A stretch of 64,000 nucleotides of DNA from a virus. Below, one piece after another: positions 3,684 through 62,360 of the stretch; within the stretch, counting starts at the first letter, position 1, and every line of letters begins with the position of its first letter. The notes below the pieces were generated by a model. That model saw only the letters and a list, made by a program, of their open reading frames with translations. It was not told the origin of the DNA and did no database searches. The stretch is taken from positions 1 through 64,000 of the IMG/VR virus record IMGVR_UViG_3300032241_000649, one strand, 5' to 3'. Position numbers and translations under genes: made by a program.

Positions 3684-4445
3684 TTACCCAAAGATTCCTT
3701 TGTCTTTAGAGGAAGAGTTCCCCATAAGCTTTCCGCGGTGCTTTGCGTATTCAGTAACCGACATAGCGGCAATTTGTTCCGCTGTAAACGAGTTAGAGTC
3801 CGAATTGTTTTCCATAGTTGGAGGCAATGTTGTGCGTGTGCCTGTCATATCACGACGCTGAGCTTGAATAGCCTGTTGCGCCGATTCCAGAATCTTAGCA
3901 GATCGCTCTCTAAGACCGGTAATACTTTGTTCTATCTCATCGTGAGTATTTCCTGAGATTAGATCTACAAGCTCAGGGATAATATTATCACGTTCTTCTT
4001 CTAAACGGCGGTTGCGATAAGATGTCAACTCTGCATACTGGCGCTCACGCTCTAGTAGTGCATCTTTACGAGCAGCTTCCTGACGGATTGACTCGATCTC
4101 ATCTTTCCACGCCTTCTCTTTTTGTTCAAGAAGTGTGCGAACGTCCATTTCAGACTCTGCTTTGCGTTGAGCTTCGGCCTCTGCCTCTGCCTTAATACGC
4201 TCAGCTTCTGCTGTACGCTCTTCGTCACGCTTCTTCAAGAGGTTAAGTTCCTCTTTAAGAGAATCAATCTGAGGGTAGAGCTTAGATTTTTCTTGCTCAC
4301 GCACTCGACGAAGATCATCTTCTGTATAACCCTTAGCCTCTACAAAGTTTGTGTTGGGAGGGGTTGTTGGGGTAGTTCCTTGTGCTTCTGATGCAAAGGC
4401 TTCTTGAGCCACTGCACTATCTACAACGGGTGAATCTGTTGCCAT
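3684..4445 (-). CDS. Capsid scaffolding protein
   Basis: Charged coiled-coil 253 aa between portal and MCP; C-terminal IAAMSVTEYAKHR helix. Confidence 0.8.
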   Translation of the reverse strand: MATDSPVVDSAVAQEAFASEAQGTTPTTPPNTNFVEAKGYTEDDLRRVREQEKSKLYPQIDSLKEELNLLKKRDEERTAEAERIKAEAEAEAQRKAESEMDVRTLLEQKEKAWKDEIESIRQEAARKDALLERERQYAELTSYRNRRLEEERDNIIPELVDLISGNTHDEIEQSITGLRERSAKILESAQQAIQAQRRDMTGTRTTLPPTMENNSDSNSFTAEQIAAMSVTEYAKHRGKLMGNSSSKDKGIFG

Positions 4446-9819: not shown

Positions 9820-9959
9820 AGTACATGGAAGGGAGACCTTCCAACACTAACTACGTAACAAAAGAGTTGCAACTAGCCCAGCAGACAGACGCAGGGCTAT
9901 TTTTATCCAAGTGACAGTTGGGTAAAGATCCGGGTTGGCTCTCTAGCCTAGGAGATAGT

Positions 9960-14693: not shown

Positions 14694-15230
14694 TTAACCA
14701 GCAACGTAGCCGTTGACCCATGGGCCAATAGCTGTGTTATAGGTAACTCCTGGAGTTGTAGCATCCTGGTACTTGTAGACAACTAGGTTAGTAGTTGTTC
14801 CTTTAGTAGAGGATCCTGTTACAGAAGTTGAATAAATTGTTCCTGTATTAGCAGGAGTTGCTCCAGCTGTATTGTAGGTAACAGTACCTACGTTAGCTCC
14901 AGCAAGTACAAGAGCATCAACTGCACGGATAAAACCATATCCTGTGACATCTGGGATTGTAATTGCATCTGAGGTTACAGATACACCTGTGTTAGCTGCA
15001 TAACCTGGGAATGCATCCCAAGCTTCTGAAGCAATAACTTCGCTGTCCTGTGAAGCAGTGATCTTAGCGCTAGTCTTAGTGCTTACATAAGTCCAGCTGT
15101 GGTTTTGATCTGCACCAACTGTTGTTGTTTGTGTTGGGGAGGTAACTCGATTGTCATCTGGTTGTAGAGGCAGGTTACCCCATACAAAGTCAACGGCAAC
15201 GTTACCAGAGGTATCTACTGGGTTTGACAT
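14694..15230 (-). CDS. Paralogue A: conserved N-module plus PASTA-like domain
   Basis: DTSGNVAVDFVWGNLPLQPDD; IPDVTG...AVDALVLAG...GTIYS...LVVY. Confidence 0.7.
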   Translation of the reverse strand: MSNPVDTSGNVAVDFVWGNLPLQPDDNRVTSPTQTTTVGADQNHSWTYVSTKTSAKITASQDSEVIASEAWDAFPGYAANTGVSVTSDAITIPDVTGYGFIRAVDALVLAGANVGTVTYNTAGATPANTGTIYSTSVTGSSTKGTTTNLVVYKYQDATTPGVTYNTAIGPWVNGYVAG

Positions 15231-19815: not shown

Positions 19816-20211
19816 GTCTACCCTCGCAATCTCTAGCTAGTGATGGAACTACGTATACTTTACCACAGTACTGACATTGATACCTGTCCATGTTCGTATT
19901 CTACTGGCCACTGCCTTAGATGTCTGAGAGTCCCCCGAAATTTTTGCCTCACCATCTCTATGATCATAGAGAGAGCTTTCCCGCCTCCCAATTAGCAAAC
20001 TTGTTGCCTAAGTCACATTTTACTGTTACACGCATATCAAGTGTAGAACTTCTACATTTAGGCCACTGCTTAACCCAAAAATAGCCCACCAGTTTGTAAT
20101 GTCTGCCGATCTCGTGGGTAGCGAGGGGTTTAAGGGTAGGGGGGGTAAAATCATTTGTTACTTAGGTGTAAGCCACGAGGCGCAATCTAGATGAGAGAGT
20201 ATCTCTCCTGC

Positions 20212-20255
20212 TCCCCTACATGGTGCTAGGTGTGGTTCGATTCCACACTAGGGGG
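20212..20255 (+). ncRNA. tRNA-half-like element (acceptor-like stem plus T-arm only)
   Basis: TCCCCTA...GTGTGG-TTCGATT-CCACAC-TAGGGGG; no D or anticodon arm. Confidence 0.45.
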
Positions 20256-20299
20256 CGGGAACTAGGGAAGTGTAGTACCTAGTCCTAGAGAGGGACATC

Positions 20300-20827
20300 A
20301 TGTCCACATTAACAACACTCACCCCTGCTTCTGCCAACCTAGTTGGCGAGATAGTCGGAAAACTCAATAACCGCAAGGCTTGGGTTATTAACGACATCAT
20401 TGCTGTCTACAAGGCAGATAGCAACATTACCCCCGAACATCTTATGGTTGGGGTTAAGGGTACGCTCAACACCGGTGCTGTCTACTCTGCTTGGTATCAT
20501 CACAAGACAGGGATTGACCTCGGTATGCTCAACCTCGCTTGGGTAGGTAAGCGTTATCACCTACTCACAGCAGACTCAACTCTTGGCGCACAGATTACCG
20601 CGCTTAAAGAGGGAGAGGCTGCTGCTGTTCGCGCAGATAATGACGCGAAGATAAACAACGGAACTGCTACTGTCGAGGCTTTCGATAGTGTCGTATCCGC
20701 TTTCGCTTCTGCTGCTAAGGCTCCTGTATCAGGTAACCCAGCAGTAGGCGCAAAGATAGCAGAGATGGAACTCGCTCTTGCTTCACTCAAGGCTAAGTAC
20801 CTTGATGCTGTAGCAGTAGGCGCGTAG
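20300..20827 (+). CDS. Hypothetical protein, first gene of the plus-strand region
   Basis: 175 aa, GAGAGGG RBS, Ala-rich C-terminus. Confidence 0.75.
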   Translation: MSTLTTLTPASANLVGEIVGKLNNRKAWVINDIIAVYKADSNITPEHLMVGVKGTLNTGAVYSAWYHHKTGIDLGMLNLAWVGKRYHLLTADSTLGAQITALKEGEAAAVRADNDAKINNGTATVEAFDSVVSAFASAAKAPVSGNPAVGAKIAEMELALASLKAKYLDAVAVGA

Positions 20828-20975
20828 TCTCCTGCTGGCGTAGTGGAATAGTCGGGGTAACCCCCCGACTATTTCGCTATGTCCGCAAGGGCATAAGGTA
20901 GGAGAGTCTGGCTCAACCCAGCACGCAGGGCTATGGAAGGTGAGTACACCAATCGTTAGCCCGTCCAGCAGGAGA
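20828..20975 (+). ncRNA. Candidate structured RNA module 1
   Basis: 11 bp closing helix TCTCCTGCTGG/CCAGCAGGAGA enclosing a ~19 bp hairpin and smaller stems. Confidence 0.5.
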
Positions 20976-21102
20976 GTACTCTGCTCATCACCAACACAAA
21001 CAATCAGGCCACTGGCTATGTGGCTATACGTCTGTCCAGCCGTAAGACCAAGTCTAGACGGCTATGGTTTGGCTATTATCAGGTATCAACAGGAGGTTAA
21101 TT

Positions 21103-21204
21103 ATGTCTATTCTAGACCCTATGCAATCAGGTCTGCCTATCACCATTCTATGGCTAGGTGGTTCTCTTCTATTCGCCTATGCCATATTTGGAGGCAAGAA
21201 ATGA
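21103..21204 (+). CDS. Small membrane peptide (33 aa, not in track)
   Basis: AGGAGG RBS; MSILDPMQSGLPITILWLGGSLLFAYAIFGGKK. Confidence 0.6.
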   Translation: MSILDPMQSGLPITILWLGGSLLFAYAIFGGKK

Positions 21205-21341
21205 TTATTACCAAGACTACTAAGACCATCAGGCTTACCAAGCCTTGTGGGTGTTCTATCTCTCTATCTATTCATCAGTTGTTTATAGATGGAATACTTC
21301 AGAGTTCCCCCGAAAATGTGAAGGAATTGTCCTATGCATGA
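21201..21341 (+). CDS. Small hypothetical protein (3' part of track ORF 20940..21341)
   Basis: GGAGG RBS and ATGA coupling. Confidence 0.45.
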   Translation: MIITKTTKTIRLTKPCGCSISLSIHQLFIDGILQSSPENVKELSYA

Positions 21342-21558
21342 GATTGAGGACATTGAGGACTTTATTGACCTGAGCAAGGCAACCTATAAATTGCAGTGGT
21401 ATGAGAAAGAGGTCATAGAGTTACGCTTTAGCACAGAGGGCAAAAGACCCATGTCCTTTGAGCAGATAGGTAAGAAAATGGGTATAAGTACAGGCATGGC
21501 TAAGCGTATCTATACAGAGGCTATAGCAGCGCTGGCAGAGTCAATGAAGGAGAAATAA
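21334..21558 (+). CDS. Stand-alone sigma-70 region-4 HTH protein
   Basis: EKEVIELRF...MSFEQIGKKMGISTGMAKRIYTEAIAAL. Confidence 0.75.
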   Translation: MHEIEDIEDFIDLSKATYKLQWYEKEVIELRFSTEGKRPMSFEQIGKKMGISTGMAKRIYTEAIAALAESMKEK

Positions 21559-21560
21559 TA

Positions 21561-21767
21561 ATGGCTAATTGTATCTACTGTGGCAATGAGTTTGCCCAAG
21601 CAAGGCTAGATGCTGGCTATCCATACTGTATGGACAAGACATGTGTCACTAAGGGCATTTCTGGCCGTATGGCTGAGTTCAGGCTTATTCTCATGCCCAA
21701 GCAAGGCTTTACCTATGTCTATAGTGATAGTCCTGATCTATTGAATGGTAAGAGTTCAGGTAGGTAA
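21561..21767 (+). CDS. Small Zn-finger protein (DksA/TraR C4-like spacing)
   Basis: CIYCG...ARLDAGYPYCMDKTC. Confidence 0.55.
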   Translation: MANCIYCGNEFAQARLDAGYPYCMDKTCVTKGISGRMAEFRLILMPKQGFTYVYSDSPDLLNGKSSGR

Positions 21768-21780
21768 GTCCCCCGCGAAA

Positions 21781-21877
21781 TGTGGGCGGTGAAAGATACA
21801 CAGTTGGGCACCCTTCGACCTCTTAGGAGGCAATCAAGTGACTTGTGCATTCCGCTGTGTATCTCTCACTTCCCACA
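21781..21877 (+). ncRNA. Candidate structured RNA module 2
   Basis: Long interrupted helix TGTGGG..GTGA.AGATACACAG / CTGTGTATCT.TCAC..CCCACA. Confidence 0.45.
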
Positions 21878-21907
21878 AGGAAGTAAACCCTCTATGAAAG
21901 GAGAAAC

Positions 21908-22016
21908 AATGCTGTTCGTATTCATTATGGCAGTAGTCATGCTGGTCTTTGCTTATGCCATCATTGACAAGCAGTACAAAATTGAACGCGAGTACATGGA
22001 GTCGGGCAATGAGTAA
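21908..22016 (+). CDS. Small membrane peptide
   Basis: AAAGGAG RBS before MLFVFIMAVVMLVFAYAII; start coordinate approximate. Confidence 0.5.
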
Positions 22017-22350
22017 GGGCCCAACACAAACATTCCTGCAGGTCATAGTTGATTGGCAAGACGCGTCTCTATGCACGCAGACTGACCCCGATTTATTCTT
22101 TGCTGCTGACAATGAGCGTGGACGAGCCAAGAATGAGCGTATAGCTCAGGCTAAGGCTATTTGTAATCAGTGCCCAGTAATACTAAACTGTTTACAACGT
22201 GCTGTATATACCAATGATGCCTATGCAATCATGGGCGGTACAACACCTGAAGAGCGCGGTCATTTAAATGACGGCTCAGGCAAGATGACAACCAGTTGGT
22301 CATTGGAGACCATATTGGCTAACAAGGCGAAGGAGGCAGTAAATGCTTGA
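22009..22350 (+). CDS. whiB: WhiB-family Fe-S transcription factor (1)
   Basis: WQDASLC...DPDLFF...CNQCPVILNC...AIMGGTTPEER. Confidence 0.88.
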   Translation: MSKGPTQTFLQVIVDWQDASLCTQTDPDLFFAADNERGRAKNERIAQAKAICNQCPVILNCLQRAVYTNDAYAIMGGTTPEERGHLNDGSGKMTTSWSLETILANKAKEAVNA

Positions 22351-22489
22351 TGAAAATAGACTACAAGAACTAATGGCTATCTCTGAGCAGATCAATTCAG
22401 TACAGGCTAAGTTGGCTGAGATCTATGCTGAGATACATGTGTATAAGTTAATCGGTGAAATCCTAGAGAAGATTGGAGAGTCCAAGTGA
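22343..22489 (+). CDS. Small coiled-coil protein (not in track)
   Basis: AAGGAGG RBS; MLDENRLQELMAISEQ... Confidence 0.55.
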   Translation: MLDENRLQELMAISEQINSVQAKLAEIYAEIHVYKLIGEILEKIGESK

Positions 22490-22623
22490 GCAAAGCAACA
22501 GAGTTTACAGTTGGCAGTAAATGGGTATCTATTGGTGTAAGCAAGCGATTTGGCATTGGCTTCTACATAGATAGGTATTCTATGGGCATAGACTTTCTAT
22601 GCTTCTGGTTCTGTATTGAATAG
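22486..22623 (+). CDS. Small hydrophobic protein (not in track)
   Basis: GTGA coupling; MSKATEFTVGSKW...FWFCIE. Confidence 0.5.
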   Translation: MSKATEFTVGSKWVSIGVSKRFGIGFYIDRYSMGIDFLCFWFCIE

Positions 22624-22628
22624 TGTTT

Positions 22629-23031
22629 AGTGAGCACGCTCAGTGCCGTTTCCACTGAGCAGGCGGGGAAGTTGAGGGGCTTCCCCGCCATTTCTATGCC
22701 ATGCGATAGGTACATGCTATGTATCTATCGGATTGCATAGCCAATCTAGCGGTAAGACATGGACAACATGTAAGCAGTAAGGAATGACGGTTGCTAAGGC
22801 TTGTAAGGAAATTAACCCGAGAAAAGCTGAACCCCTGATTCGGACCCTTTATTCTCGACAGACTTCGTGGGCTGTCACAATACTGGCTCGCTATTGAGTC
22901 TTAAACAAATGTCTCTATCCGTAACTCACATAGTATGGGGAGTATAAACCATGCAAGCAAGTTGGTTTCTACAGTTCTTCCTTAGGTAAAAGAACTCCTC
23001 ACCTGAGCAGGTGAAGGCTAAACTGCTCACT
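22629..23031 (+). ncRNA. Candidate ~400 nt structured RNA module 3
   Basis: No track ORF; successive hairpins at 22638-22660, 22662-22689, 22704-22730; possible pseudoknot at 22999-23029; ends complementary (AGTGAGCA/TGCTCACT). Confidence 0.5.
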
Positions 23032-23050
23032 CTTAATAGAAAGGATAGAA

Positions 23051-23221
23051 ATGTCACCAACACAAACAACAACAACCACCCTCAACCGAATGATCTTCAT
23101 TGTGGAAGCCCAACTGTTTCATGGGCTAACACGCAAGGAAGCATTAGCCTTAGCGGCTGATGAGATGGACACTCTATACGATCGTGTAGAGACAATAACA
23201 ACCTCCGAAAGGGGCCTATAA
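23051..23221 (+). CDS. Small hypothetical protein (not in track)
   Basis: AGAAAGGA RBS; MSPTQTTTTTLNRMIF... Confidence 0.55.
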   Translation: MSPTQTTTTTLNRMIFIVEAQLFHGLTRKEALALAADEMDTLYDRVETITTSERGL

Positions 23222-23222
23222 A

Positions 23223-23489
23223 ATGGCAAAAGGTAAAGCAACAACACCACAGGTAAATACTGCTGGTGACCGCAAGAATGGCAAGGCACGTAAGAAAAAC
23301 CCCGGCCCTGCTACAACAGAGAAGACCAACTTCACACACGTGAATGGTCGCACAGCTGAAAGCAATGCCAAGCGTGAGGCTTGGAAGGCTGCTGGTGGTC
23401 GTTGGGATCACAAGTCTATCCCTCATTGGAAGACAGGCAAGGTCTACAATCCACAGGCTGTATCACTAGTGGGTAAGTCACTAGTATGA
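23223..23489 (+). CDS. Basic hypothetical protein
   Basis: 88 aa, K/G-rich. Confidence 0.65.
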   Translation: MAKGKATTPQVNTAGDRKNGKARKKNPGPATTEKTNFTHVNGRTAESNAKREAWKAAGGRWDHKSIPHWKTGKVYNPQAVSLVGKSLV

Positions 23490-23758
23490 GCAAGAAGATT
23501 AAGCGTAAGCAACTGATCAAGATGTTGGAGGCTAAGTTAGCTGAGGCTGAGTTAGACCTGCAATACGAAGATCATCAGCACAGTCGTGCATATCACACTG
23601 GATTAATTGACGGACTAGGTGAAGCCCTAGTACTGTTGCGCCCAGAATCACGCCGTCTACCTATCACCATTGCATGGTATCAGGAAGACGAGCCAACACA
23701 AACAATGGCGCTAGAGCGTCAGCGTGAGTATATATTCGAAACTATGGAGGCATCGTGA
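23486..23758 (+). CDS. Hypothetical protein
   Basis: ATGA coupling. Confidence 0.6.
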   Translation: MSKKIKRKQLIKMLEAKLAEAELDLQYEDHQHSRAYHTGLIDGLGEALVLLRPESRRLPITIAWYQEDEPTQTMALERQREYIFETMEAS

Positions 23759-24489
23759 CTTGGAAACTTCATACATACGATTACTGGTCTACCTACTTAG
23801 ATGGTGGTCGTAAAAAATACATGCGCCCACTTTATGAGTATGGAATGGTAATTGAAAAAGCCAACCATTGGCAACCTGCTGGTAGTGACCTACAAATCAA
23901 AGCAAGATGGGCAGCTAACCTACCATTTATTACAGTACACAATGATGATTCATTTACTCTACAAGGTGGCACTGTTAATAGTTTCTGGGGTGGCAACTAC
24001 GACATCATAAAATCACAGGGTATACGCTATCGCATGTGGAAGTACACAGGCATACGCGTATTTCAAAAGAACTATCAAATTAGAGTTCTTGAGTTAGACC
24101 CTGCACGTACACCATCTAAGATACAAGGCTGTCGGCGTTGTGCTCAGACAGGCTTAGTAGATGGTTGGTGTAGTCCACCAACTTGTTATGATGGTAGTAG
24201 AGATGATCAAGGCGTGTTCTCATGTCCTACACATCCAGATGCTACCCAGACTAATGGCTACAGACAATGGCATCAACTTCCATGTTCACACGGAGGTATA
24301 GATGGTCATTCAGTAAAACGCGGTAATACATGCTATTCGTGCAGTGGCACAGGCAAGCGCGAATATGGCAACAATCCGATTTCTTTACCATGGGATGGTT
24401 CCCCTCTTAGGGTAAAGGATAGAAAGATAGTCCCGATAACAACGTCAGGACTAATTAACTTAGAAAGGTTGGTCGCACAATATGCTTGA
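23755..24489 (+). CDS. Cys-rich protein with DnaJ-like CxxCxGxG Zn motif
   Basis: CRRCAQTG...CYSCSGTG. Confidence 0.6.
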   Translation: MTWKLHTYDYWSTYLDGGRKKYMRPLYEYGMVIEKANHWQPAGSDLQIKARWAANLPFITVHNDDSFTLQGGTVNSFWGGNYDIIKSQGIRYRMWKYTGIRVFQKNYQIRVLELDPARTPSKIQGCRRCAQTGLVDGWCSPPTCYDGSRDDQGVFSCPTHPDATQTNGYRQWHQLPCSHGGIDGHSVKRGNTCYSCSGTGKREYGNNPISLPWDGSPLRVKDRKIVPITTSGLINLERLVAQYA

Positions 24490-24991
24490 GGGCTACTCAG
24501 TAAAGTACAACCCAAGTACACTCATCACTGATAAAACAATCATGGGCAGTACTGATCACATTCAGGCTTCCAATGTATTGACTCGTTCTTTAATGCCACA
24601 TACTTTATTGGATGTGACATCTAAGAGCGTTCATTATAGAGATGCTATCATCGCACATATCTCTAACAATGCAGACAATGAGCATAAAGCAAACGCTCTT
24701 AATATCCTAGTTGAAGCAATCCAATCTACACCAGATGGAGACCCAATGCTTCAGGGATACAGCGAGTATGCAGCAGCCATTGCATTGTTACTAGATAGTA
24801 CTGATGTTGCGTCTAAGATAATTGCACGCAATGAACGAAGTAGTGCTAGTAGTTTCTTAACTACTCTTGCTACAGTTATTGCTAGGAAGATTGAGACAGC
24901 CCAATTCAAGGGCATGGTTGAAGCTTCTGGTGCAGCTGCTACACAGCAATGGGTAATGGTTGACCGCCCAACGCTATTCCCAAATGACTAA
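24482..24991 (+). CDS. Hypothetical helical protein
   Basis: 169 aa, AGAAAGG RBS. Confidence 0.65.
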   Translation: MLEGYSVKYNPSTLITDKTIMGSTDHIQASNVLTRSLMPHTLLDVTSKSVHYRDAIIAHISNNADNEHKANALNILVEAIQSTPDGDPMLQGYSEYAAAIALLLDSTDVASKIIARNERSSASSFLTTLATVIARKIETAQFKGMVEASGAAATQQWVMVDRPTLFPND

Positions 24992-25015
24992 CCAACACAA
25001 ACAAACGGGGGGCAT

Positions 25016-25312
25016 ATGTCAGAAGAAATAAAGAAAAGACCAAAGGATACCGCAAACGATATTATCTCTTGTGGTAACTGTGGTCGTCGTATCCAACCTC
25101 ATCAAGCCAGTACCGAGGTGTTTAACACTCGTCACAAAGGCTATGAACATTACCATGAGTCATATCTTGGTTGCTACGAATCAACACGTGAGTCTGGTAA
25201 AAAAGTGGTTCTTAACCGCTACAAGCCATGGCTTCACAACATCTACAACGATCCATCCGAACCTGTTGATGATGGTGCTAAATACACCAACATCATTGAC
25301 AAAATCAAATAG
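25016..25312 (+). CDS. Zn-binding hypothetical protein
   Basis: CGNC...H...C. Confidence 0.55.
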   Translation: MSEEIKKRPKDTANDIISCGNCGRRIQPHQASTEVFNTRHKGYEHYHESYLGCYESTRESGKKVVLNRYKPWLHNIYNDPSEPVDDGAKYTNIIDKIK

Positions 25313-25315
25313 ATA

Positions 25316-25481
25316 ATGTTAGGCTGGCTAAGCCAACCGCGAGCATACTTCATGTACACCTAGACCCTAGTACCCAATTAAACCAGCCACAGAGGAACAG
25401 TTCTGTGCGACGTAGGTTGAGGCAACAGTGATGGTAAGCCCTGCAGTCCCTGTAAGCACTGGAGGTAAGCCAGCCTAATAT
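25316..25481 (+). ncRNA. Candidate structured RNA module 4
   Basis: 14 bp closing helix ATGTTAGGCTGGCT/AGCCAGCCTAATAT with internal stems. Confidence 0.5.
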
Positions 25482-25499
25482 CTAATAAAGGAGAGCAAC

Positions 25500-25736
25500 A
25501 TGTGTCATGAATGTTATGACGAAGAACAACCCGAGTTTTCATTAGAGATGATCCCTGAGGAAGACCGCGAGGATTTTTTAGACTTCACCTGTGAACAGTT
25601 TGGCGTAGTAATTAACGCTGCTGTTACTAATGATATCTTGTTTGAACTAATCACTGAATGGCCTGCTGAGAAGCAAGCAATGTTCACGTTAGCTAGCGTT
25701 CTTCAAGGAAGAGTCTTTGGAGATAACAACGAATAA
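25500..25736 (+). CDS. Small acidic protein
   Basis: AAAGGAG RBS. Confidence 0.6.
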   Translation: MCHECYDEEQPEFSLEMIPEEDREDFLDFTCEQFGVVINAAVTNDILFELITEWPAEKQAMFTLASVLQGRVFGDNNE

Positions 25737-25746
25737 AGGAGAGCAA

Positions 25747-27132
25747 ATGGAGATAGCAATCTTCACCGAATCATATGAGCCCTCTATGGGAGCACATCGC
25801 CGTCAGGTATTGATGGCTCCTCATGATGGTGGAGTACGTGTCTATTCACGCAAAACTGATGGCACTAAAGGTCATGGTAGCGCGTGGGTTGAGACTGATC
25901 TTGAAGAGTTGGTCACTGAGATCAACCCTAACGAACAGTTGACACGCACACCAAGTGGTGTGTACGTTACACCCTTAGATGAAAAAGCAATAACAACCAA
26001 AGGATATTCCCCAGTGTTGTGCACTAAAGCGTGCTCAGCACATGCTAAGGCTGGTCCTAATACAGAAACAAAAACACTCGTGGAAACTATCTACGATGTG
26101 TACACACGCATACTAGGAGGAGATGACACCTTGGATACATATGTCAAAGACAATCGCTCAGCAACTAGCAGTACTGTCCCGTTGATAGTACAGCCAGTGC
26201 ATGAGCTTCCAACACAAACAACCGCCCAGCCAGCATTCAACGTATCGTTGGCCACAGTGCCTCCAATGAAGTTGGCTGAACGTTATGTACATCGTAAGGT
26301 CTACGGAGTTGAAGACTTCAAAACATTCGATACAGCACGTGCTAAAGGCATCAACGTTCTTATCTACGGTCCAACAGGTCCCGGTAAGACTACAGCAGTC
26401 GAAGCATGGGCTGCTGAACGCAATCTACGCATGGCTACAGTATCTGGTAACGCGTCTATGGAATCCCGCCAGTTATTCGGTGGCTTCATTCCTGATGGCA
26501 ATGGTGGCTATGGATGGATTGACGGTCCTGTCACAGACGTAGTTCGTAATGGTGGTGTTTTACTCCTAGACGAGTTCAACTTCATCAGTCCTAAGATCTA
26601 CACAACACTCTATCCATTGACTGACGGTCGTCGTACGATCACATTGCTAGATCACATGGGCGAGACAATCGTTGCTCACCCTGACCTAACAATCTTCGCT
26701 ACTATGAATCCTGATTACATTGGTACTACACCGCTTAACTTTGCTATGCGTAACCGCTTTGACATTCAACTGTCATGGGATTACGATGACGCAGTGGAAT
26801 CAAAGCTAATCTCATCCAAGTCTTTGCTACTAATCGCTAAGCAATTGCGTGCGGAAGCAGCCAAGGGTCAGTATGAGACTCCAATCTCAACTAACATGCT
26901 CATTGAAATTGCTGACTTCATCAATGATGATGATCTTGGCTATGAGTTTGCTATTGAGAACTTCATCGCTCACTTCAGTGCAGACGAGCAGCCATCTGTT
27001 CGTTTGGTATTCCAAACACACGAACACAATATCAAGCAGGACTTCGGTATGGAAGTTGAAATTGAGCTTGAGAAAGACGCTGACGTGTCACCTGAAGATC
27101 TAATGAACAAATGGTTAACCAACACAAACTAA
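25747..27132 (+). CDS. MoxR/CbbQ/CobS-type AAA+ ATPase with N-terminal extension
   Basis: GPTGPGKT, LLLDEFN, ATMNP...Y.GT..LN.A..NRF. Confidence 0.88.
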   Translation: MEIAIFTESYEPSMGAHRRQVLMAPHDGGVRVYSRKTDGTKGHGSAWVETDLEELVTEINPNEQLTRTPSGVYVTPLDEKAITTKGYSPVLCTKACSAHAKAGPNTETKTLVETIYDVYTRILGGDDTLDTYVKDNRSATSSTVPLIVQPVHELPTQTTAQPAFNVSLATVPPMKLAERYVHRKVYGVEDFKTFDTARAKGINVLIYGPTGPGKTTAVEAWAAERNLRMATVSGNASMESRQLFGGFIPDGNGGYGWIDGPVTDVVRNGGVLLLDEFNFISPKIYTTLYPLTDGRRTITLLDHMGETIVAHPDLTIFATMNPDYIGTTPLNFAMRNRFDIQLSWDYDDAVESKLISSKSLLLIAKQLRAEAAKGQYETPISTNMLIEIADFINDDDLGYEFAIENFIAHFSADEQPSVRLVFQTHEHNIKQDFGMEVEIELEKDADVSPEDLMNKWLTNTN

Positions 27133-27141
27133 GGGGGTAAC

Positions 27142-29001
27142 ATGTTTCAAGATGAGTTAGATGAATCGTACTACGCACAAGAACGAACTGAGGAGATACA
27201 GGTTAGATCTGTTCGACTCAATGCGCTCTGTCGTGTATATGAACAAGCAGACCGTGTTCTCACTGGTGATCCAGTGGTAGTAAATGTAGCAAATGACGGC
27301 CCCGCACCAGCGTGGTCCGACGGTGCAAGCATTACTATCAATGCCAGTCAGATAGGTGACATGGACTTAGAGTCATTGACTCAGGTCAATGGCCTGAACT
27401 ATCATGAGCTTGCCCATCACTTATATACTCCAAGACGAGGCACAGACCTTGTCAAATGGGTTATAGAAAATAACTACATGCAGACGTTCAATATGCTGGA
27501 GGATCAGCGTATCGAGACTTTGCTTGTAGCACGCTATCCATCTATTGCTCCATATCTAACAGCTACGTGTGCTCGTTGGCTTGCTGCATCTCCTGATGAA
27601 ATGCAAAGCAACTATGTACTCATGCGTGGTCGTAGGTATCTGCCTGTGGAATTGCGTCAAGCATTCCGTGATATGTTCAACAATAAAGAACTTATCCCAG
27701 CAATCATTGACATCGTAGATCAGTATCGTCTCTTAGCATTCCCCAAAGATTATGCTAAGGCTCGTGAACTAATCAAACGGTTCAATGATGAAGTGCTACC
27801 AAACATGCCAAAAATTCCACAAGGTGGCAATGGATGTACTAATCGTGATCCAGTAACCAAAGGTCGTCCTGAGCCAGGCAAGGCACAGGAACGTGACGCA
27901 CAGCGTGCTAATGGTATGGGCAAAGCAGAATCTGAATGGACTCCACGTAAATCTATTGAGGAGCAAACAGAAGATGCGCCCAACACAAACCCAACTGAAA
28001 ACATAACTCAAGTTATGTCAACAGAGGAGCAACTAGAGGCTCGTCAGCAATCACAACAATCTAACACAGCTGGATTAGCTGCTGGTGATGGTCACATTGC
28101 TAGTGCTGGTGGATTGCCAAACAACATCAATGACATGCTTGATAACGTCATACAGTCTGTACTAGAACGTAAAGATGTACAGCAGGACGTTAAAATCAAG
28201 CAGAAAGTAATCATTGGTGGTGATGGCAAGCATGAGGATACATTGCGTACGGGTAAGTTTGACAAAACCCCTGTACCATCTGAAGCCATGGCTAACTTTC
28301 GTAAGTTTGCTAAGGAACTAGAACGCTTGCGTGATGAGTGTGAGCCAATGTGGCATCGTGAGGAAGCGTCTGGCCGTCTCAATGTACAACGTGCATTGCG
28401 TGGCTGTGAAATTGACGAAGCCTTTGACCGCTGGGATGAAGGTAACGATGGTGCTGATATCGAAGCGGTAATCATGGTTGATCGGTCAGGCTCTATGAAT
28501 TCTGGTAAAAATGACATGCACGCTTCTATCGCTAGCTGGACTATCAAACGTGCACTAGAAAGCATCGGCGCCCCGGTGACTGTGTATGCGTTTGATGACC
28601 AAGCTGAACTAGCCTATGCTCGTACTGAACTGGCTAGCAAGACTCAATACAAATTCATCTATGGTAATGGTGGTACAAATCCGTACTCTACATTGCTAGC
28701 AGCTGAGCAGTTATTGATGTCCTCTCGTAAGAAAAATAAGATGCTGTTCATGATTACTGACGGCGCGTTTGATGCCCGCAGGAATGATGAAATTATCGCC
28801 CGCATTCAAAAGCGTGGCGTGCTAACTGCAATGACTCTTATCATGCAGGAAAGTGATCTAGAGTACTACACAGAACGTGGTACAAAACTAGAAGAGTTCC
28901 GTCATGGTATGGAAATCTTTGCTCGTATCAATTCAGCACGTGACTTGGTTCCATTTGCCAAGTCTGTAGTAGCCGGCGCTATCAAGAAGCGTGGGCGTTA
29001 A
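27142..29001 (+). CDS. VWA-domain protein with N-terminal HExxH metallopeptidase-like region (CobT/NorD-like partner)
   Basis: HELAH...LEDQRIE; MIDAS DRSGSM, GGT, ITDG. Confidence 0.85.
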   Translation: MFQDELDESYYAQERTEEIQVRSVRLNALCRVYEQADRVLTGDPVVVNVANDGPAPAWSDGASITINASQIGDMDLESLTQVNGLNYHELAHHLYTPRRGTDLVKWVIENNYMQTFNMLEDQRIETLLVARYPSIAPYLTATCARWLAASPDEMQSNYVLMRGRRYLPVELRQAFRDMFNNKELIPAIIDIVDQYRLLAFPKDYAKARELIKRFNDEVLPNMPKIPQGGNGCTNRDPVTKGRPEPGKAQERDAQRANGMGKAESEWTPRKSIEEQTEDAPNTNPTENITQVMSTEEQLEARQQSQQSNTAGLAAGDGHIASAGGLPNNINDMLDNVIQSVLERKDVQQDVKIKQKVIIGGDGKHEDTLRTGKFDKTPVPSEAMANFRKFAKELERLRDECEPMWHREEASGRLNVQRALRGCEIDEAFDRWDEGNDGADIEAVIMVDRSGSMNSGKNDMHASIASWTIKRALESIGAPVTVYAFDDQAELAYARTELASKTQYKFIYGNGGTNPYSTLLAAEQLLMSSRKKNKMLFMITDGAFDARRNDEIIARIQKRGVLTAMTLIMQESDLEYYTERGTKLEEFRHGMEIFARINSARDLVPFAKSVVAGAIKKRGR

Positions 29002-29026
29002 TCCAACACAAACAAAGGAGAGCAAA

Positions 29027-29218
29027 ATGTACAACATATTCGATAACCTTACAGAAACATTGATAGGCCCATTCAATGACTATGAATCAGCCCAAATGTT
29101 CATGCTATATGCCTCAGAAGACATGATAGATGGTGGCGCATGCCTATCCATTGAAGCTGTAACTGATCCACTTGAGTGGGTACAGGAGAATAATCTATCT
29201 ATGGCAGCATACGTATGA
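29027..29218 (+). CDS. Small hypothetical protein
   Basis: AAAGGAG RBS before MYNIFD. Confidence 0.6.
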   Translation: MYNIFDNLTETLIGPFNDYESAQMFMLYASEDMIDGGACLSIEAVTDPLEWVQENNLSMAAYV

Positions 29219-29376
29219 GTATCCAATATCTAGACCATCATCCAGTTATTACACCAATCATAGAAGGATTAAAACAACGAGAGGAGGAACGCCATCAAGC
29301 TAATAAAGATATAGTTAGAGAGCTGTTAATTAAACACGATGCAGAGGATTTAATTCCAATGCTATTGGAGGACTAA
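29215..29376 (+). CDS. Small hypothetical protein (not in track)
   Basis: ATGA/TAATG coupling; MSIQYLDHHP... Confidence 0.5.
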   Translation: MSIQYLDHHPVITPIIEGLKQREEERHQANKDIVRELLIKHDAEDLIPMLLED

Positions 29377-29558
29377 TGGCCAAAAAAAGTAAGAGTACAA
29401 CCATTGGTTATGGGAAGCACACGTTCAAAAAGAGAAAGACTAGAGCGGGTGGTTCTTGCATGAGGGTTGGTGGTAGAAATAGGATACGTAAACCCAGACT
29501 TACAGCGGGTACGTTTCCTGTAGTAACTACTTATATAAACAAACTAGAGGAAGAATAA
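29376..29558 (+). CDS. Small basic protein
   Basis: K/R-rich 60 aa; GGAGG RBS. Confidence 0.55.
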   Translation: MAKKSKSTTIGYGKHTFKKRKTRAGGSCMRVGGRNRIRKPRLTAGTFPVVTTYINKLEEE

Positions 29559-30013
29559 TGGTAAATACATTCCTGCCTTGGCCGGATATAACAAAGACAG
29601 CTAAATCCCTAGACGATAAGAGACTTGGCAAGCAACGCGTAGAAGCATTGCAGATTCTAAGGGCTAACTTGGGTCTAACTGTGGGATGGCGCAACCACCC
29701 AGCTGCAGTAATGTGGCGGGGACACGAAGGCTACCTATATATGTACACGAACGCTATGTGCATAGAGTGGAGGCAACGTGGGTTTGAAGATAACGTACAA
29801 GCAAGGCTGCAAGAAATATATGCAGAGCACGACTTACAGGGCTGGGATAAACCCTGGTGGTGGGGCATTGATGAGTTCCATAAATCGCATCGCTCTAACC
29901 TCAAGCGTAAAGATCCGGTTTGGTACCGGTTTCGTGTACGCAAAGACCTGTTATACAAATGGCCTATGCCTGATAGGTCATTCCGTGTAGTAACTAAAAA
30001 GGAGAAAAAATGA
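29558..30013 (+). CDS. Pyrimidine-dimer DNA glycosylase-like (MSMEG_6728/endonuclease V family)
   Basis: TFLP...LDDKRLGKQRVEALQIL...HPAAVMWRG...HRSNLKRKDP.WY. Confidence 0.82.
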   Translation: MVNTFLPWPDITKTAKSLDDKRLGKQRVEALQILRANLGLTVGWRNHPAAVMWRGHEGYLYMYTNAMCIEWRQRGFEDNVQARLQEIYAEHDLQGWDKPWWWGIDEFHKSHRSNLKRKDPVWYRFRVRKDLLYKWPMPDRSFRVVTKKEKK

Positions 30014-30147
30014 ATGAAGTAGTATGGCAGTCTACAATCACAGCAGATATGGTTGCAGACTTCAGTCCAGATGAACTAGACCTCATGATTGCTGACCTAA
30101 ACGATGCAGTCATGCAAACCTGTCAAGACTATGGAATGGCGGACTAA
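30010..30147 (+). CDS. Small acidic protein (not in track)
   Basis: AAGGAG RBS; MNEVVWQSTITAD... Confidence 0.5.
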   Translation: MNEVVWQSTITADMVADFSPDELDLMIADLNDAVMQTCQDYGMAD

Positions 30148-30148
30148 C

Positions 30149-30340
30149 ATGGCTAAGTATCAAGTAACCATCCACGAACATGTTATCTATGATCATTGGG
30201 TGGAAGCAAGCAGCAAAGAAGAAGCAAAAGAACTAGCTGAAGACGCCATAAGTGATGGCAACAATGCAGGTTGGAAGCTAGATGAAATGGCTGGGTGGAC
30301 TGAAGTAGGAGACATCTACCTAGATGATCAGCTGATTTGA
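30149..30340 (+). CDS. Small acidic protein (DpnD/PcfM-like pattern)
   Basis: MAKYQVTIHE....VEASSKEEAKELA. Confidence 0.55.
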   Translation: MAKYQVTIHEHVIYDHWVEASSKEEAKELAEDAISDGNNAGWKLDEMAGWTEVGDIYLDDQLI

Positions 30341-30366
30341 CTCAAAACAAACAAATCGGCTATACT
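30337..30366 (+). promoter_or_regulatory. Sigma-A-type promoter
   Basis: TTGACT-N18-TATACT; spacer begins CAAAACAAAC, a variant of the 11-mer. Confidence 0.6.
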
Positions 30367-30370
30367 GTAA

Positions 30371-30592
30371 ATGGAAAGGAAAAAGATGCCTAATGAAGAC
30401 CTATACAACCTAGAAATCAAGTTCGATGTCAACATAGCCAAATGGCGTATTGATGATCAAACTGTAGAAGACAACAGAGAGTGGGCACTATGGGTATATG
30501 ACAGGTTACAAGGCAAATGGATTGATACTTCAGAAATGAGTAGACCAGGTGAAGAAGTATCTATCGTAGAGCTTACCCAAAGGGGGGTATGA
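30371..30592 (+). CDS. Hypothetical protein
   Basis: ORF track; start probably MPNEDL. Confidence 0.55.
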   Translation: MERKKMPNEDLYNLEIKFDVNIAKWRIDDQTVEDNREWALWVYDRLQGKWIDTSEMSRPGEEVSIVELTQRGV

Positions 30593-30596
30593 TGAA

Positions 30597-30824
30597 ATGC
30601 AACTCAATATAAAGACCAAGGAGATAAAGAAGCTGGTTAGCGCGTTAGAGCAAGCCGGCTTACAAGTTTCCATAACTAATGGGAAACACCATGTTAAAGT
30701 GGTTAACCCAAGAACTAGGAATACTGTGTTCTTCGGGGCTCAGTCTCTAGGAGATCGCAGAACTGGTAAGAATATCCTACGAGATCTAAAGCACGTAGGA
30801 TTCAACAAGAATATAAAGCTCTAG
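30597..30824 (+). CDS. HicA-like (dsRBD-fold) protein
   Basis: KEIKKLVSALEQAGLQV...GKHHVKV...ILRDLKHVG. Confidence 0.6.
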   Translation: MQLNIKTKEIKKLVSALEQAGLQVSITNGKHHVKVVNPRTRNTVFFGAQSLGDRRTGKNILRDLKHVGFNKNIKL

Positions 30825-30833
30825 GAGGGCAAT

Positions 30834-31127
30834 ATGGCTACAACAGTAAAACAAACACTGACCGCAAAATTAACCAAGAACACATCTGTAGAAAAGGGTG
30901 GGGCTTGGTTACTTCACATCTGTATCCAAACTGAGGGAGCAAGTGAATGTGTAATGGATACGCACTCAGCTTGGTCTAACCCATCTGCAGCTAAGCGCTT
31001 CTTGAAGCAAGTAGTGCTTGAGAACACTCCACGTAAGTCCATCAAGATGGAGACTAAAGCTACCAATGACTTGGGTAAGCCAACTCATCTAGCAGGTGAG
31101 CTCAACTATAAGTGGGGTATTGCATAA
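30834..31127 (+). CDS. Hypothetical protein
   Basis: GGGAGGG RBS. Confidence 0.6.
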   Translation: MATTVKQTLTAKLTKNTSVEKGGAWLLHICIQTEGASECVMDTHSAWSNPSAAKRFLKQVVLENTPRKSIKMETKATNDLGKPTHLAGELNYKWGIA

Positions 31128-31253
31128 TGGATATGGAAACCGTACTACCTCGTACCTGTACTATATGTATGGGTACGGGGGTTGCCACATGGTATATAGA
31201 TGAAGAAACATTTGAAATCAAAGAATGTGACTGCCAATACAAGGAGGAAACAA

Positions 31254-31466
31254 ATGGCTAGATACTCAGTAATGTACAGTGTAGAAAAGACAGGCACATT
31301 GACGTTTACAGCGGATGATGATAGCCACGCACAAGAGCTATACGATGCTTTACTAAATGGAGACATTTATGAGGCAGATCTTGAAGACCTACAAGACAGC
31401 ACAGAAGATAATAACCAAAGCTTCTATGAACTACGTAACTCACACGGCAAGCAAATAGCAGACTAA
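31254..31466 (+). CDS. Small acidic protein, similar pattern to 30149..30340
   Basis: AAGGAGG RBS; MARYSVMYSVE...FTADDDSHAQEL. Confidence 0.55.
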   Translation: MARYSVMYSVEKTGTLTFTADDDSHAQELYDALLNGDIYEADLEDLQDSTEDNNQSFYELRNSHGKQIAD

Positions 31467-31639
31467 AGGAGAGCAACATGACACTAGCAACACTTATACT
31501 GGTAGCAACATATATAGTAGTAGACGCCATTAGAGACATACGATTAGAGCGTCGTTTGAGCGATATAGAAGACTGTGTATTCTATATCTATGAAAACCAT
31601 CCTGAGCTACTTGACCACATACGAGTAGATTAAATAGGC

Positions 31640-31686
31640 AAAGCAAAGGCCCCCGGCTCTTAATTGAGTCGGGGGCCATTTGTTTG
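31640..31686. terminator. Bidirectional terminator between convergent regions
   Basis: GGCCCCCGGCTC-TTAATT-GAGTCGGGGGCC with T-rich flanks on both strands. Confidence 0.8.
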
Positions 31687-31699
31687 TGTTGGCCGTTTT

Positions 31700-62075: not shown

Positions 62076-62360
62076 TTAGCGTATGTCAACCCTTCTTGGC
62101 AAATCCTGAATATCTCTACGCGTAGCACCCGCAAAAATTTGGTCTACAAGAAGAGAAACAGTAAGTCCTATAAAAGTTGAAGCACAGGCATAGACCAGCA
62201 AGTACAACCATTTGACTTCTAGATTTATAAGTGCTAAGGTTGCCAACACAAACGCAAGTAACCCCCGCCATTTTCCTAATGGAATGAGGAGGCTATCTAC
62301 GGCTGTTAGTATAAATGCAGTTGCTAGTGACGCTATAAGTATTATGCCCATACTTGCCAT
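62076..62360 (-). CDS. Small membrane protein
   Basis: Three hydrophobic segments. Confidence 0.6.
   Translation of the reverse strand: MASMGIILIASLATAFILTAVDSLLIPLGKWRGLLAFVLATLALINLEVKWLYLLVYACASTFIGLTVSLLVDQIFAGATRRDIQDLPRRVDIR

Follow-up and report, generated by a model that had tools for sequence, protein, structure and literature searches.

The window analysed here is a stretch of 64,000 nt from a phage record of 88,722 bp, which belongs to a family of uncultured freshwater actinobacterial phages with loci in IMG/VR. Within it, an oppositely transcribed gene block on the plus strand (20300..31633), syntenic with 58 related loci, encodes a WhiB protein (21949-22350), a MoxR-class ATPase (25717-27132), a VWA/HExxH protein (27142-29001) and a denV-like glycosylase (29558-30013). 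Many small genes also lie in the block. Terminator-like hairpins are found inside it at 20842-20870 and 22662-22689, and at its end a GC-rich bidirectional terminator hairpin (31648..31677) separates it from a convergent RNR operon on the minus strand. Along this one operon runs a 12-letter DNA word, YCAACACAAACA, at about one copy per kilobase and pointing with transcription.

The 11-mer core of the word, CCAACACAAAC, has 13 exact copies in the window, against 0.01 expected from dinucleotide shuffles; none of 100 such shuffles reached 13. An initial annotation had located these 13 copies and put the chance expectation well under 0.1; every copy is an exact match where it was placed, the gaps given between the nine plus-strand copies are correct, and the shuffles agree with the low expectation. 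Nine copies are on the plus strand between 20991 and 29003, three on the minus strand (4347, 15127 and 31682), and one more on the plus strand at 62243. The full record holds 15, the two beyond the window being plus-strand copies at 70509 and 84337, and CCAACACAAAC is the commonest 11-mer of the entire genome. The word is sharply defined, since the window contains just one additional copy with a single mismatch, at 9841. The motif could be refined to the 12-mer Y-CAACACAAAC-A, with a near-invariant A at position 12, the full consensus being YCAACAYAAACA. Its sense strand consists of C and A only, and is predicted to be 73% unpaired in the sense RNA. No enrichment of the motif was seen in 401 sampled actinobacterial genomes (one of them, G057, unpublished), so it is not a host word.

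Ten sites lie on the plus strand of the block. Site 1 (CCAACACAAACA, 20991..21002) is downstream of the terminator-like hairpin that comes after the block's first gene, 9 nt past the palindrome AGAGTACTCT. Site 2 (22021..22032) lies 4 nt past the stop codon of gene 21780-22016, site 3 (23057..23068) spans codons 3-6 (PTQT) of a 56-aa gene (23051-23221), and site 4 (23693..23704) is close to the 3' end of gene 23486-23758. Site 5 (24992..25003) abuts the TAA of gene 24482-24991, with an ATG (25016) 13 nt on. Two sites fall in the ATPase gene: site 6 (26209..26220) occupies an indel-rich linker, with synonymous positions invariant in all relatives, and site 7 (27119..27130), with T as its last base, forms the final four codons (TNTN) and is not conserved in most relatives. 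Site 8 (27980..27991), ending in C, is in a linker of the VWA gene, 838 nt in, and site 9 (29003..29014) is 1 nt past the VWA stop codon, again with an ATG (29027) 13 nt on. The slots of sites 4, 5, 8 and 9 are conserved in relatives. Site 10 (TCAAAACAAACA, 30342..30353) is degenerate; it sits at the junction of genes 30104-30340 and 30371-30592, where relatives have a canonical copy. Beyond it, a reversed boundary copy (31681..31692, minus strand) is sense to the RNR operon and about 4 nt from the terminator hairpin.

Outside the block, a full-consensus copy (15126..15137, minus strand) is sense to gene 14694-15230, and a copy with T at position 12 (4346..4357, minus strand) is sense to gene 3684-4445. 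Every full-consensus 12-mer of this genome runs in the sense direction of the local transcription. The antisense copy at 62243..62254 (plus strand, G at position 12) is preceded by TTGACT-17-TAAGGT; no copy at a comparable place outside the block was reported in the two complete relatives, G001 and G002, and this copy is probably not part of the array system. Both it and the antisense copy at 70509 lack the position-12 A and lie within GT-rich coding sequence of the opposite strand, so the two may be by-products.

The copies are regularly spaced, as had been proposed for an interval of about 1 kb: the coefficient of variation of the gaps is 0.12-0.45, against 0.72-0.89 for random placement, the median gap is 1237 bp, and only 2 of 310 gaps are shorter than 500 bp. 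About 60% of copies are inside genes and about one third are upstream of a gene start. Junctions between a stop codon and a Shine-Dalgarno sequence are enriched in copies roughly three-fold; a copy at such a junction stops 10-15 nt short of the start codon, leaving the Shine-Dalgarno sequence between the two. No copy was found to overlap a recognisable -35/-10 promoter of the block. The copies inside genes are read in different frames, as PTQT five times and as NTN twice, which confirms an earlier remark. When the count was compared with codon-preserving shuffles, as the initial annotation had suggested, 10 sense copies were observed inside ORFs, whereas synonymous shuffling of all called ORFs gave 1.5 on average and never more than 5, with 0 of 300 shuffles reaching 10. 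In the codon alignment of the ATPase, CCA ACA CAA ACA never varies, whereas the flanking conserved TVPLVV codons vary synonymously. Together, the shuffles and the fixed synonymous positions uphold the proposal that selection acts on nucleic acid and not on peptide.

All 58 related loci, with ATPases 52-83% identical, carry the word in forward orientation within the same block; the sites follow the direction of transcription, and the motif is retained at homologous positions. Most of the loci that reach the end of the block also show a single reversed copy next to the convergent terminator hairpin, about 4 nt from it in every examined locus having such a copy; the hairpin sequence differs among relatives with compensatory changes, while the adjoining motif is unchanged. 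Conserved slots include the linkers of both long genes; elsewhere copies are gained and lost, a turnover that preserves copy density. Most block proteins have drifted apart to 30-60% identity, yet the motif does not change. Several relatives have a -10-like TATGTA and a 5' hairpin ahead of the first copy, which there lies in the 5' untranslated region. The word is almost confined to the block in the two circularly assembled 100-kb relatives, G002 having 8 forward copies and 1 reversed copy and none elsewhere. The block is internal in both, and the idea that the sites serve stepwise genome entry is thus unsupported.

In distantly related cultured Gordonia Bendigovirus phages, the syntenic block carries another one-way word, the 10-mer GCTCCGGGTG / CGACCGGGTG, with forward/reverse counts of 15/0 in Gray, 6/0 in GMA6 and 13/0 in ScarletRaider. 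Both arrays run one way in a block that begins at a divergent intergenic region and holds the MoxR ATPase and VWA genes, both have a copy in the VWA linker (822 nt into the gene in Gordonia phages, 838 nt here), and both have a copy just beyond the VWA gene. The Gordonia word differs in being of mixed composition, its spacing is looser (0.7-5.9 kb), and five copies are clustered in the promoter region. No array is evident in the related phages DalanDe and Cantare, although the ATPase-VWA pair is present. The Gordonia array is a putative counterpart.

Most of the readers proposed in the initial annotation found no support. The sigma-4 protein (21334-21558) was found in this genome only; the product of 20300..20827 shares just 23-31% identity between relatives, in contrast to the invariant motif, and it did not match solved repressors; the position of WhiB varies, some relatives encoding it ahead of the first site and others beyond it. 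No repressor-like or helix-turn-helix (HTH) protein shared by the whole family was found. The best-conserved basic protein is that of 23223-23489, for which no homologue was detectable in the most distant site-bearing loci. Searches for an integrase were likewise negative, in agreement with the earlier remark that none is visible, and the phage is for that reason apparently lytic.

How does this array compare with known systems? The early regions of Cluster K mycobacteriophages carry oriented 13-nt repeats, the start-associated sequences (SAS), which are often found at gene junctions and include the ribosome-binding site, a few bases ahead of the start codon. Unlike SAS, the word here contains no Shine-Dalgarno sequence, is upstream of it when intergenic and is mostly inside genes. 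The word is also reminiscent of ops/RfaH and boxA-Nus (rrn, lambda nut), 12-nt single-stranded elements in the 5' part of long operons that function in the sense orientation only, and the boxA of rrn is repeated further downstream, reloading the complex. However, ops and boxA occur in one or two copies rather than ten and bear no sequence resemblance to the word, and neither a NusG paralogue nor a boxB-like hairpin was found here. E. coli iRAPs are CA-rich, RNA polymerase-binding aptamers in nascent RNA that act in cis, also within genes, provoking Rho-dependent termination and limiting interference between converging units (PMC6847712); these are degenerate, chromosomal and mostly antisense, in contrast to the exact, sense 12-mer specific to one phage family. 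The closest known precedent is the one initially suggested, the L5 / Cluster A stoperators bound by gp71-type repressors: asymmetric 12-13-nt words in many copies per genome, highly conserved and oriented with transcription, in phages of actinobacterial hosts (PMC9283540, PMC5559632). The asymmetric 13-mers, of which there are more than 20, are bound by L5-type repressors in monomeric form, and inverted sites lose function (PMC9283540). The differences are considerable. The words are unrelated (GGTGGCTGTCAAG for the stoperator, CCAACACAAACA here), the present phage is a myovirus of about 90-100 kb and apparently lytic, its array is regularly spaced and confined to one operon rather than genome-wide, most copies are inside genes, and no homologue of the HTH-plus-stoperator-domain repressor was found.

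The word is real, conserved, under nucleic-acid selection, co-oriented with transcription and regularly spaced, with copies placed in long-gene linkers and beside the terminator at the block end. We put the probability at about 40% that it forms a polar array for transcription control, resembling stoperators and read by a factor specific to the lineage. The boundary copy by the terminator and the first copy after TATGTA and hairpin suit a 'stop' or operator-like role, and the different 10-mer of the distant cultured relatives supports a lineage-specific reader. Several observations speak against it: it is not obvious what an immunity repressor of the stoperator type would do in an apparently lytic phage, stoperators are mostly intergenic, no copy was found on a recognisable promoter of the block, no family-wide repressor-like protein was found, and a strand of C and A alone, rarely seen in duplex-DNA sites, is what one typically finds in unstructured single-stranded elements of RNA or DNA. 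Because the motif is invariant amid diverging block proteins, a host machine would fill the role of reader no less well than a phage protein. This last point and the unstructured sense strand would also suit a possible, though less probable, role as reload sites for processive antitermination or anti-Rho protection. Here a phage-encoded factor, a host Nus-type complex or RNA polymerase itself would read nascent RNA or the non-template strand, keeping polymerase resistant to terminators or Rho for roughly the next kilobase, like boxA, ops/RfaH or lambda nut/N. Strictly sense copies, a first copy in the 5' untranslated region, terminator-like hairpins within the block, and regular spacing with copies in long genes, which suits a factor of finite persistence, all favour it. 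Yet at the reversed copy, polymerases on the RNR operon would pick up the factor 4 nt ahead of their own terminator, and the resulting antisense read-through into the block looks harmful. Moreover, none of four genomes encodes a NusG/RfaH-like protein, forward copies have no adjoining boxB-type hairpin, actinobacterial genomes are not enriched in the word, and the palindromic CCGG core of the Gordonia counterpart is more like a duplex site.

The enrichment at stop-codon/Shine-Dalgarno junctions, the sense orientation of full-consensus copies, the unstructured sense strand and the boundary copy in a 3' UTR immediately before a stabilising hairpin could instead point to RNA-level targets. An RNA-binding protein or an endoribonuclease that recognises this sequence would then inactivate early mRNAs or process them, like T4 RegB at GGAG, and remove the protective hairpin from the RNR operon end. 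We regard this as unlikely. A conserved HicA-like basic protein (30597-30824; weak Pfam hit, E 7.7e-4) is a candidate, but its gene was undetected in several site-bearing relatives; known small RNases recognise 3-7 nt rather than 12; and native contexts are predicted to be no more accessible than the motif transplanted elsewhere in the block, with no visible selection on flanking structure. DNA-level sites unrelated to transcription, such as T5/phiKMV-like strand-specific nicks, priming or fork-polarity signals, or Chi-like recombination signals, would explain a sharply defined, strand-specific word, a kilobase spacing resembling Okazaki-fragment length and a lone inverted copy resembling a polarity switch. 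This is improbable, as the array matches one transcription block exactly and is absent from the other ~88 kb in complete relatives, full-consensus copies outside the block follow local gene direction, and the block holds no replication genes. Least probable of all is a single-element promoter for modified host RNA polymerase, like T4 late TATAAATA or the MotA-box middle type. The many copies in an early-type region, about a third of them upstream of gene starts, and the CGACCGGGTG subtype of phage Gray 18-21 nt upstream of TATGAA-like hexamers are in its favour, but the flanks hold no conserved -10-like element or other information, junction copies stand only 10-15 nt from start codons, most copies are within genes, the reversed copy would fire directly into the terminator hairpin, and no phage RNA polymerase or conserved sigma factor was found.

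Under the stoperator-like reading, we infer that the reader is a protein, its substrate double-stranded DNA and its effect 'stop' rather than 'go'. YCAACAYAAACA would be a cis-acting site in an evenly spaced one-way array along the early/middle operon, with one more copy in opposite orientation at the convergent end. A sequence-specific, lineage-specific factor, most likely phage-encoded, would bind it and act on host RNA polymerase passing through the operon, in an orientation-dependent way, arresting or terminating transcription at whatever point polymerase has reached. The outcome would be temporal shut-off across the entire operon, and the boundary copy would insulate the two converging transcription units, much as the L5 repressor acts at stoperators but in a lytic myovirus and limited to one operon. 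Conserved as nucleic acid rather than as protein, the word almost certainly makes up an array of regulatory sites; the only arrays of this kind described to date are the stoperators of mycobacteriophages, which are unrelated.

All 13 copies of the 11-mer CCAACACAAAC counted by the initial annotation are present in the window, each at exactly the position assigned to it, compared with an expectation of 0.01 copies per window from dinucleotide-preserving shuffles. Allowing one mismatch added just one more match (CCAACACTAAC at 9841-9851 (+), in the leader of the lone plus-strand gene 9918-10481), so the word is sharply defined. Across the whole 88,722-bp IMG/VR virus record, of which the window is the first 64 kb and whose completeness CheckV estimates at 91%, the 11-mer occurs 15 times and is the commonest word of its length. 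The nine plus-strand copies all fall within a plus-strand block at ~19.9-31.6 kb; crude gene calling places almost all other transcription on the minus strand. The ORF calls for this genome (G000) are crude calls made in the present analysis, and a sense/antisense tally based on them, being unreliable among small genes, is left out of the results. A shuffle of synonymous codons that preserved all protein sequences and the codon usage of each gene, a control the initial annotation had called for, gave a mean of 1.5 and a maximum of 5 sense copies in ORFs over 300 shuffles, while the native sequence has 10.

Aligning 180 instances from G000 and 20 relatives extended the word to the consensus Y-CAACACAAAC-A, with a weak A after it. 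The upstream flank carried no information in this alignment and the downstream flank only a slight compositional bias. The sense strand of the word consists of C and A only. There are 127 exact forward copies of the 12-mer in the 21 genomes and loci, and nearly all variants differ by one transition. Close relatives use TCAACACAAACA and CCAACATAAACA, and the most distant ones carry CCGACACAAACA and CCGCAACAAACA alongside canonical copies within one genome, a variant set that gives the broad consensus YC-R-M-M-A-Y-AAACA with an invariant 3' half. G000 has 10 block copies of the 12-mer, the tenth being a degenerate TCAAAACAAACA at 30342 in a slot where relatives have a canonical copy.

Conservation, which had been proposed as a further check, was complete: the forward word was found in the syntenic block of 58 out of 58 related viral contigs, which were collected by two ATPase searches (ATPase identity 52-83%) and are mutually related rather than independent. 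Two circularly assembled 100-kb relatives, G001 and G002, have ten forward copies, one reversed and one other, and eight forward copies, one reversed and none elsewhere, respectively. In the codon alignment of the ATPase gene, the word sits within a length-variable linker and reads CCA ACA CAA ACA (TCA in one relative) with zero synonymous variation. The neighbouring conserved peptide TVPLVV is encoded by many synonymous codons; this difference means that selection acts on the nucleic acid. The literature returned only chance matches to the 11-mer in unrelated, mostly eukaryotic papers, and no mention of the motif itself was found. Among 401 sampled actinobacterial genomes, including the unpublished G057, the word had 49 matches vs. 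~45 for a reversed control, and no genome had more than 4. Without enrichment there, it is not a common host regulatory word. A host machine could be what reads it.

G000 encodes tail sheath, baseplate and portal proteins, and is thus a myovirus, together with a family-A DNA polymerase, a helicase and a class II ribonucleotide reductase (RNR). The plus-strand block encodes a WhiB protein, a MoxR/CbbQ/NorQ-class AAA+ ATPase, a VWA protein with an HExxH motif, a denV-like glycosylase, a weakly HicA-like basic protein and ~20 small proteins with no assigned function. The first ~185 aa of the ATPase form a conserved domain that matches no family, and the N-terminal half of its VWA partner (27142-29001 (+)) contains the metalloprotease-like HExxH sequence YHELAHH. 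The HicA-like protein (30597-30824 (+)) has a GKHH motif and lies among small acidic proteins (30104-30340 and 31200-31466 (+)) whose N-termini resemble HicB-type antitoxins; the three may form a toxin-antitoxin-like module in the block. The tyrosine integrase profile PF00589 had no match in four genomes, no phage RNA polymerase was found, and the phage appears to be lytic. Actinobacterial homologues of the RNR are 62-67% identical and, with WhiB, point to an actinobacterial host, while 44% G+C and relatives from lake metagenomes suggest a low-GC freshwater host lineage. Freshwater actinophages encoding whiB are known from metagenomes (PMC10914622), and the hosts of this group are probably abundant freshwater Actinobacteria. 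An RNR on JBDNFI010000028.1, a 106-kb contig from a Cyclobacteriaceae MAG, is 77% identical to the phage RNR over its first 370 residues; the contig possibly belongs to a related phage that ended up in a bacterial bin.

Every copy within the block is forward. Comparison of relatives revealed six orthologous plus-strand slots, with gain and loss of copies elsewhere: the 3' end of the 23486 gene, the 24482/25016 junction, the ATPase linker, the VWA linker, the VWA/29027 junction and the 30104/30371 junction. The coefficient of variation of spacing per genome is 0.12-0.45 vs. 0.72-0.89 for simulated random placement, and 310 inter-site gaps have a median of 1237 bp with two shorter than 500 bp, statistics that come from related genomes and not from independent trials. 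About 60% of copies are intragenic. Over 334 unique site contexts, an ORF stop codon lies within 30 nt upstream of 37% of sites vs. 13% of random block positions, peaking at 0-1 nt, and a Shine-Dalgarno sequence with a start codon lies within 45 nt downstream of 35% vs. 12%. Read most simply, the layout follows a rule by which ~1.3-2 kb is the longest stretch left free of a site, with copies placed at gene junctions where possible and otherwise in those linkers of long genes that tolerate them.

The first 0.7-3 kb of the plus-strand genes have no site at all, nor is there a copy in the divergent intergenic region (19816-20299). Terminator-like hairpins within the block lie at 20842-20870 and 22662-22689 (+), the former directly 3' of gene 20300 and 120 nt ahead of the first copy. 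In several relatives the first site begins 2 nt after a hairpin, CACTCTC...GAGAGTG, and a predicted -10-like TATGTA element precedes that hairpin, ~30 nt upstream of the copy; this arrangement suggests that the first site occupies the 5' untranslated position of a second transcription unit. Beside forward copies there is no hairpin of the terminator type (downstream mean -5.7 vs. -5.9 kcal/mol for random block sequence). The predicted accessibility of the sense RNA in its native context revealed no extra exposure (0.73 vs. 0.71, p=0.17), and searches for known RNA families and tRNAs found none in 18-33 kb or in the window. Two other elements stand near the start of the block. A palindrome, CTATGATCATAG, at 19958-19969 in the divergent intergenic region, resembles the operator of a dimeric regulator; it and its CTATGWNCATAG variants recur in G001 at 44938, 45757, 45781 and 47630, with other copies inside conserved genes. 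Within the highly structured leader that precedes gene 20300, a T-arm-like GGTGTGGTTCGATTCCACAC at 20225-20262 is followed by a G-rich tail, and ARAGORN and Rfam made no call there.

A single reversed copy, at 31681..31692 (-) in G000, lies where the block and the RNR operon converge, as it does in every related locus examined that has one. It is past the last minus-strand stop codon and ~4 nt from a GC-rich hairpin, and is thus sense to the minus-strand operon, in its 3' UTR directly before the terminator. The hairpin differs among relatives with compensatory changes, and the adjacent motif is unchanged. Outside the block, the copies at 15127(-) and 84337(+) have the full consensus and the one at 4347(-) departs from it only by a T at position 12. 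Each of the three is sense to its local gene, as is the boundary copy. The antisense copies at 62243 and 70509 are probable by-products, since they lack the A at position 12 and GT-rich codons lie on the other strand; similarly, a plus-strand copy within the RNR gene of some relatives was discarded, as it is made of GVCVV codons and both flanking consensus bases are absent. The CCTTGAATACC repeats were rejected as regulatory; they and the plus-strand word CCTTGNANACC, which recurs with 9-nt periodicity at 1-900, reflect ordinary collagen-like Gly-X-Y coding in the minus-strand fibre gene. Integron attC-like elements or cassette joints were also rejected, given copies inside genes and no flanking inverted repeats. 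A partner RNA pairing with a C/A-only motif must be its exact complement, and the only conserved complement of the word is the boundary copy itself, which eliminated a trans-acting complementary RNA. The array is shown to act in cis as nucleic acid, to follow transcriptional polarity and to obey a density rule.

Among annotated phages, Brevibacterium phage Cantare and Gordonia myoviruses (Bendigovirus) come closest, with AAA domains 46-47% identical to that of G000. The ATPase and VWA genes are the only block genes that Gordonia phage Gray (MK279853.1) has in common with G000. Gray has a one-way word of its own, GCTCCGGGTG, in 7 copies vs. 0.16 expected, and 6 copies of CGACCGGGTG, of which 5 cluster in the 1.1-kb divergent intergenic region opening the block, 18-21 nt upstream of TATGAA-like hexamers. 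The total in Gray is 15 forward and 0 reverse, all at 56.2-73.3 kb (13406-30465 in L094, the 42801-73610 segment of this genome). The same region has 6 forward and 0 reverse copies in GMA6 (KR063280.1, 48375-64966), a phage with no temperate features (PMC5559632), and 13 forward and 0 reverse in ScarletRaider (PQ184837.1, 58586-73965). The copy in the VWA gene is 822 nt into the gene in Gray and 838 nt in G000, and in both the next copy is just past that gene. The array of GCTCCGGGTG and CGACCGGGTG in these cultured, lytic Gordonia myoviruses is not reported in the Gordonia-phage paper (PMC5559632). This common layout suggests that the Gordonia and freshwater arrays are analogous devices of one kind, each using a word specific to its lineage and hence a lineage-specific reader.

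None of the candidate readers put forward by the initial annotation survives well. The gene for the sigma-4 protein is found only in G000, WhiB is encoded upstream of the first site in some relatives, and the product of 20300..20827 shares 23-31% identity among relatives, keeps four residues invariant and matches no solved structure. Pfam and PHROGs revealed no helix-turn-helix (HTH) repressor in the block, the sigma-4 protein of G000 aside, and block proteins, compared by profile and by sequence with solved structures, matched no repressor. The N-terminal domain of the ATPase was weakened as a candidate because DalanDe and Cantare carry the ATPase-VWA pair with no evident array. A Cys/His-rich protein (23755-24489) gave a model with a pLDDT of 71 and no fold match. 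The best-conserved small block protein, encoded by 23223-23489 (+), is a basic, Gly/Lys/Pro-rich chain of 88 aa (pI 10.7) in which 26 positions are invariant across 13 sequences (...KKNPGP...REAWKAAGG...IPHWKTGKVY); its family comprises 161 hypothetical proteins restricted to the same phage group. It was set aside as a reader, being undetected in the most distant loci still bearing sites. Half of its predicted model is disordered and the model matches no fold; ESM Atlas searches for reader candidates returned no match. Such conservation is unusually strong for a small early protein, which may bind a conserved host target.

What, then, could the array do? We rank first, with a probability of roughly 0.4, a stoperator-like polar block, in which a reader would stop the elongating polymerase in one orientation at each site; such a block would serve to time the shut-off of the operon and to keep converging units insulated from each other. 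The only worked-out precedent favours it: the L5-type repressor, as a monomer, occupies >20 asymmetric 13-mers and halts elongation in one orientation only (PMC9283540). A stop signal also explains the lone reversed copy with a terminator at the operon end, and the copies clustered in the promoter region of Gordonia phages. Like the array in G000, Cluster A stoperators are many highly conserved copies of one asymmetric word, of 13 bp, and every site is oriented with transcription. In Cluster A phages the word also doubles as the operator over the early lytic promoter. However, Cluster A phages are temperate (integrase or parABS) with sites genome-wide, while G000 has no PF00589 match and its sites lie within one ~11-kb block, where we found no counterpart of the monomeric Cluster A repressor with its N-terminal HTH and stoperator domain. 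The apparently lytic lifestyle, the intragenic position of most copies and the missing repressor all count against a polar block, as does the C/A-only sense strand, typical of an unstructured single-stranded target.

That same strand composition, with the even spacing and the 5' UTR place of the first site, would suit reload points for antitermination or Rho protection, which we hold to be a less likely explanation, one for which the reversed copy is awkward. Known systems of this general kind differ from the array: lambda-type nut sites pair a boxA-like word with a boxB hairpin, whereas forward copies have no adjacent hairpin, and ops is read on the non-template strand by the NusG paralogue RfaH, whereas PF02357 had no match at E<=0.1 in four phage genomes. 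Equally tentative is a co-transcriptional "milestone" signal of an undescribed kind, an exact C/A-only single-stranded 12-mer read on nascent RNA or the non-template strand at ~1 per kb. Its reader would be the host transcription machinery or a new phage factor lacking a known fold, a strict maximum-gap rule would put copies in the linkers of long genes, and the lineage words CCAACACAAACA (freshwater) and GCTCCGGGTG (Gordonia) would coevolve with the reader. Binding or cleavage sites at the RNA level would account for the 3' UTR copy through removal of a protective hairpin, yet the lack of both a 12-nt specificity and a universal enzyme makes them unlikely. Replication, nicking or Chi-like signals are improbable: such words occur genome-wide with a polarity tied to replication or one DNA strand, whereas this pattern is restricted to one transcription block, flank-free and partly intragenic, and its full-consensus outside copies follow local gene direction. 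The same pattern makes promoters the least probable of all. Cluster K start-associated sequences, which contain the ribosome-binding site a few bases upstream of start codons, also differ from the word, which has no purine-rich core and is followed by a Shine-Dalgarno sequence and start at the minority of sites already noted.

A word so exact, evenly spaced and conserved implies a dedicated control mechanism acting along the whole operon, and the sole worked-out mechanism of such operon-long control is that of the stoperators in temperate mycobacteriophages. Were the array a roadblock system, polar control of elongation would reach beyond immunity repressors and into a lytic myovirus. If it is instead read on RNA or on the non-template strand, it would represent a new type of processivity or termination signal. 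The analogous array in cultured Gordonia phages makes this question testable at the bench.
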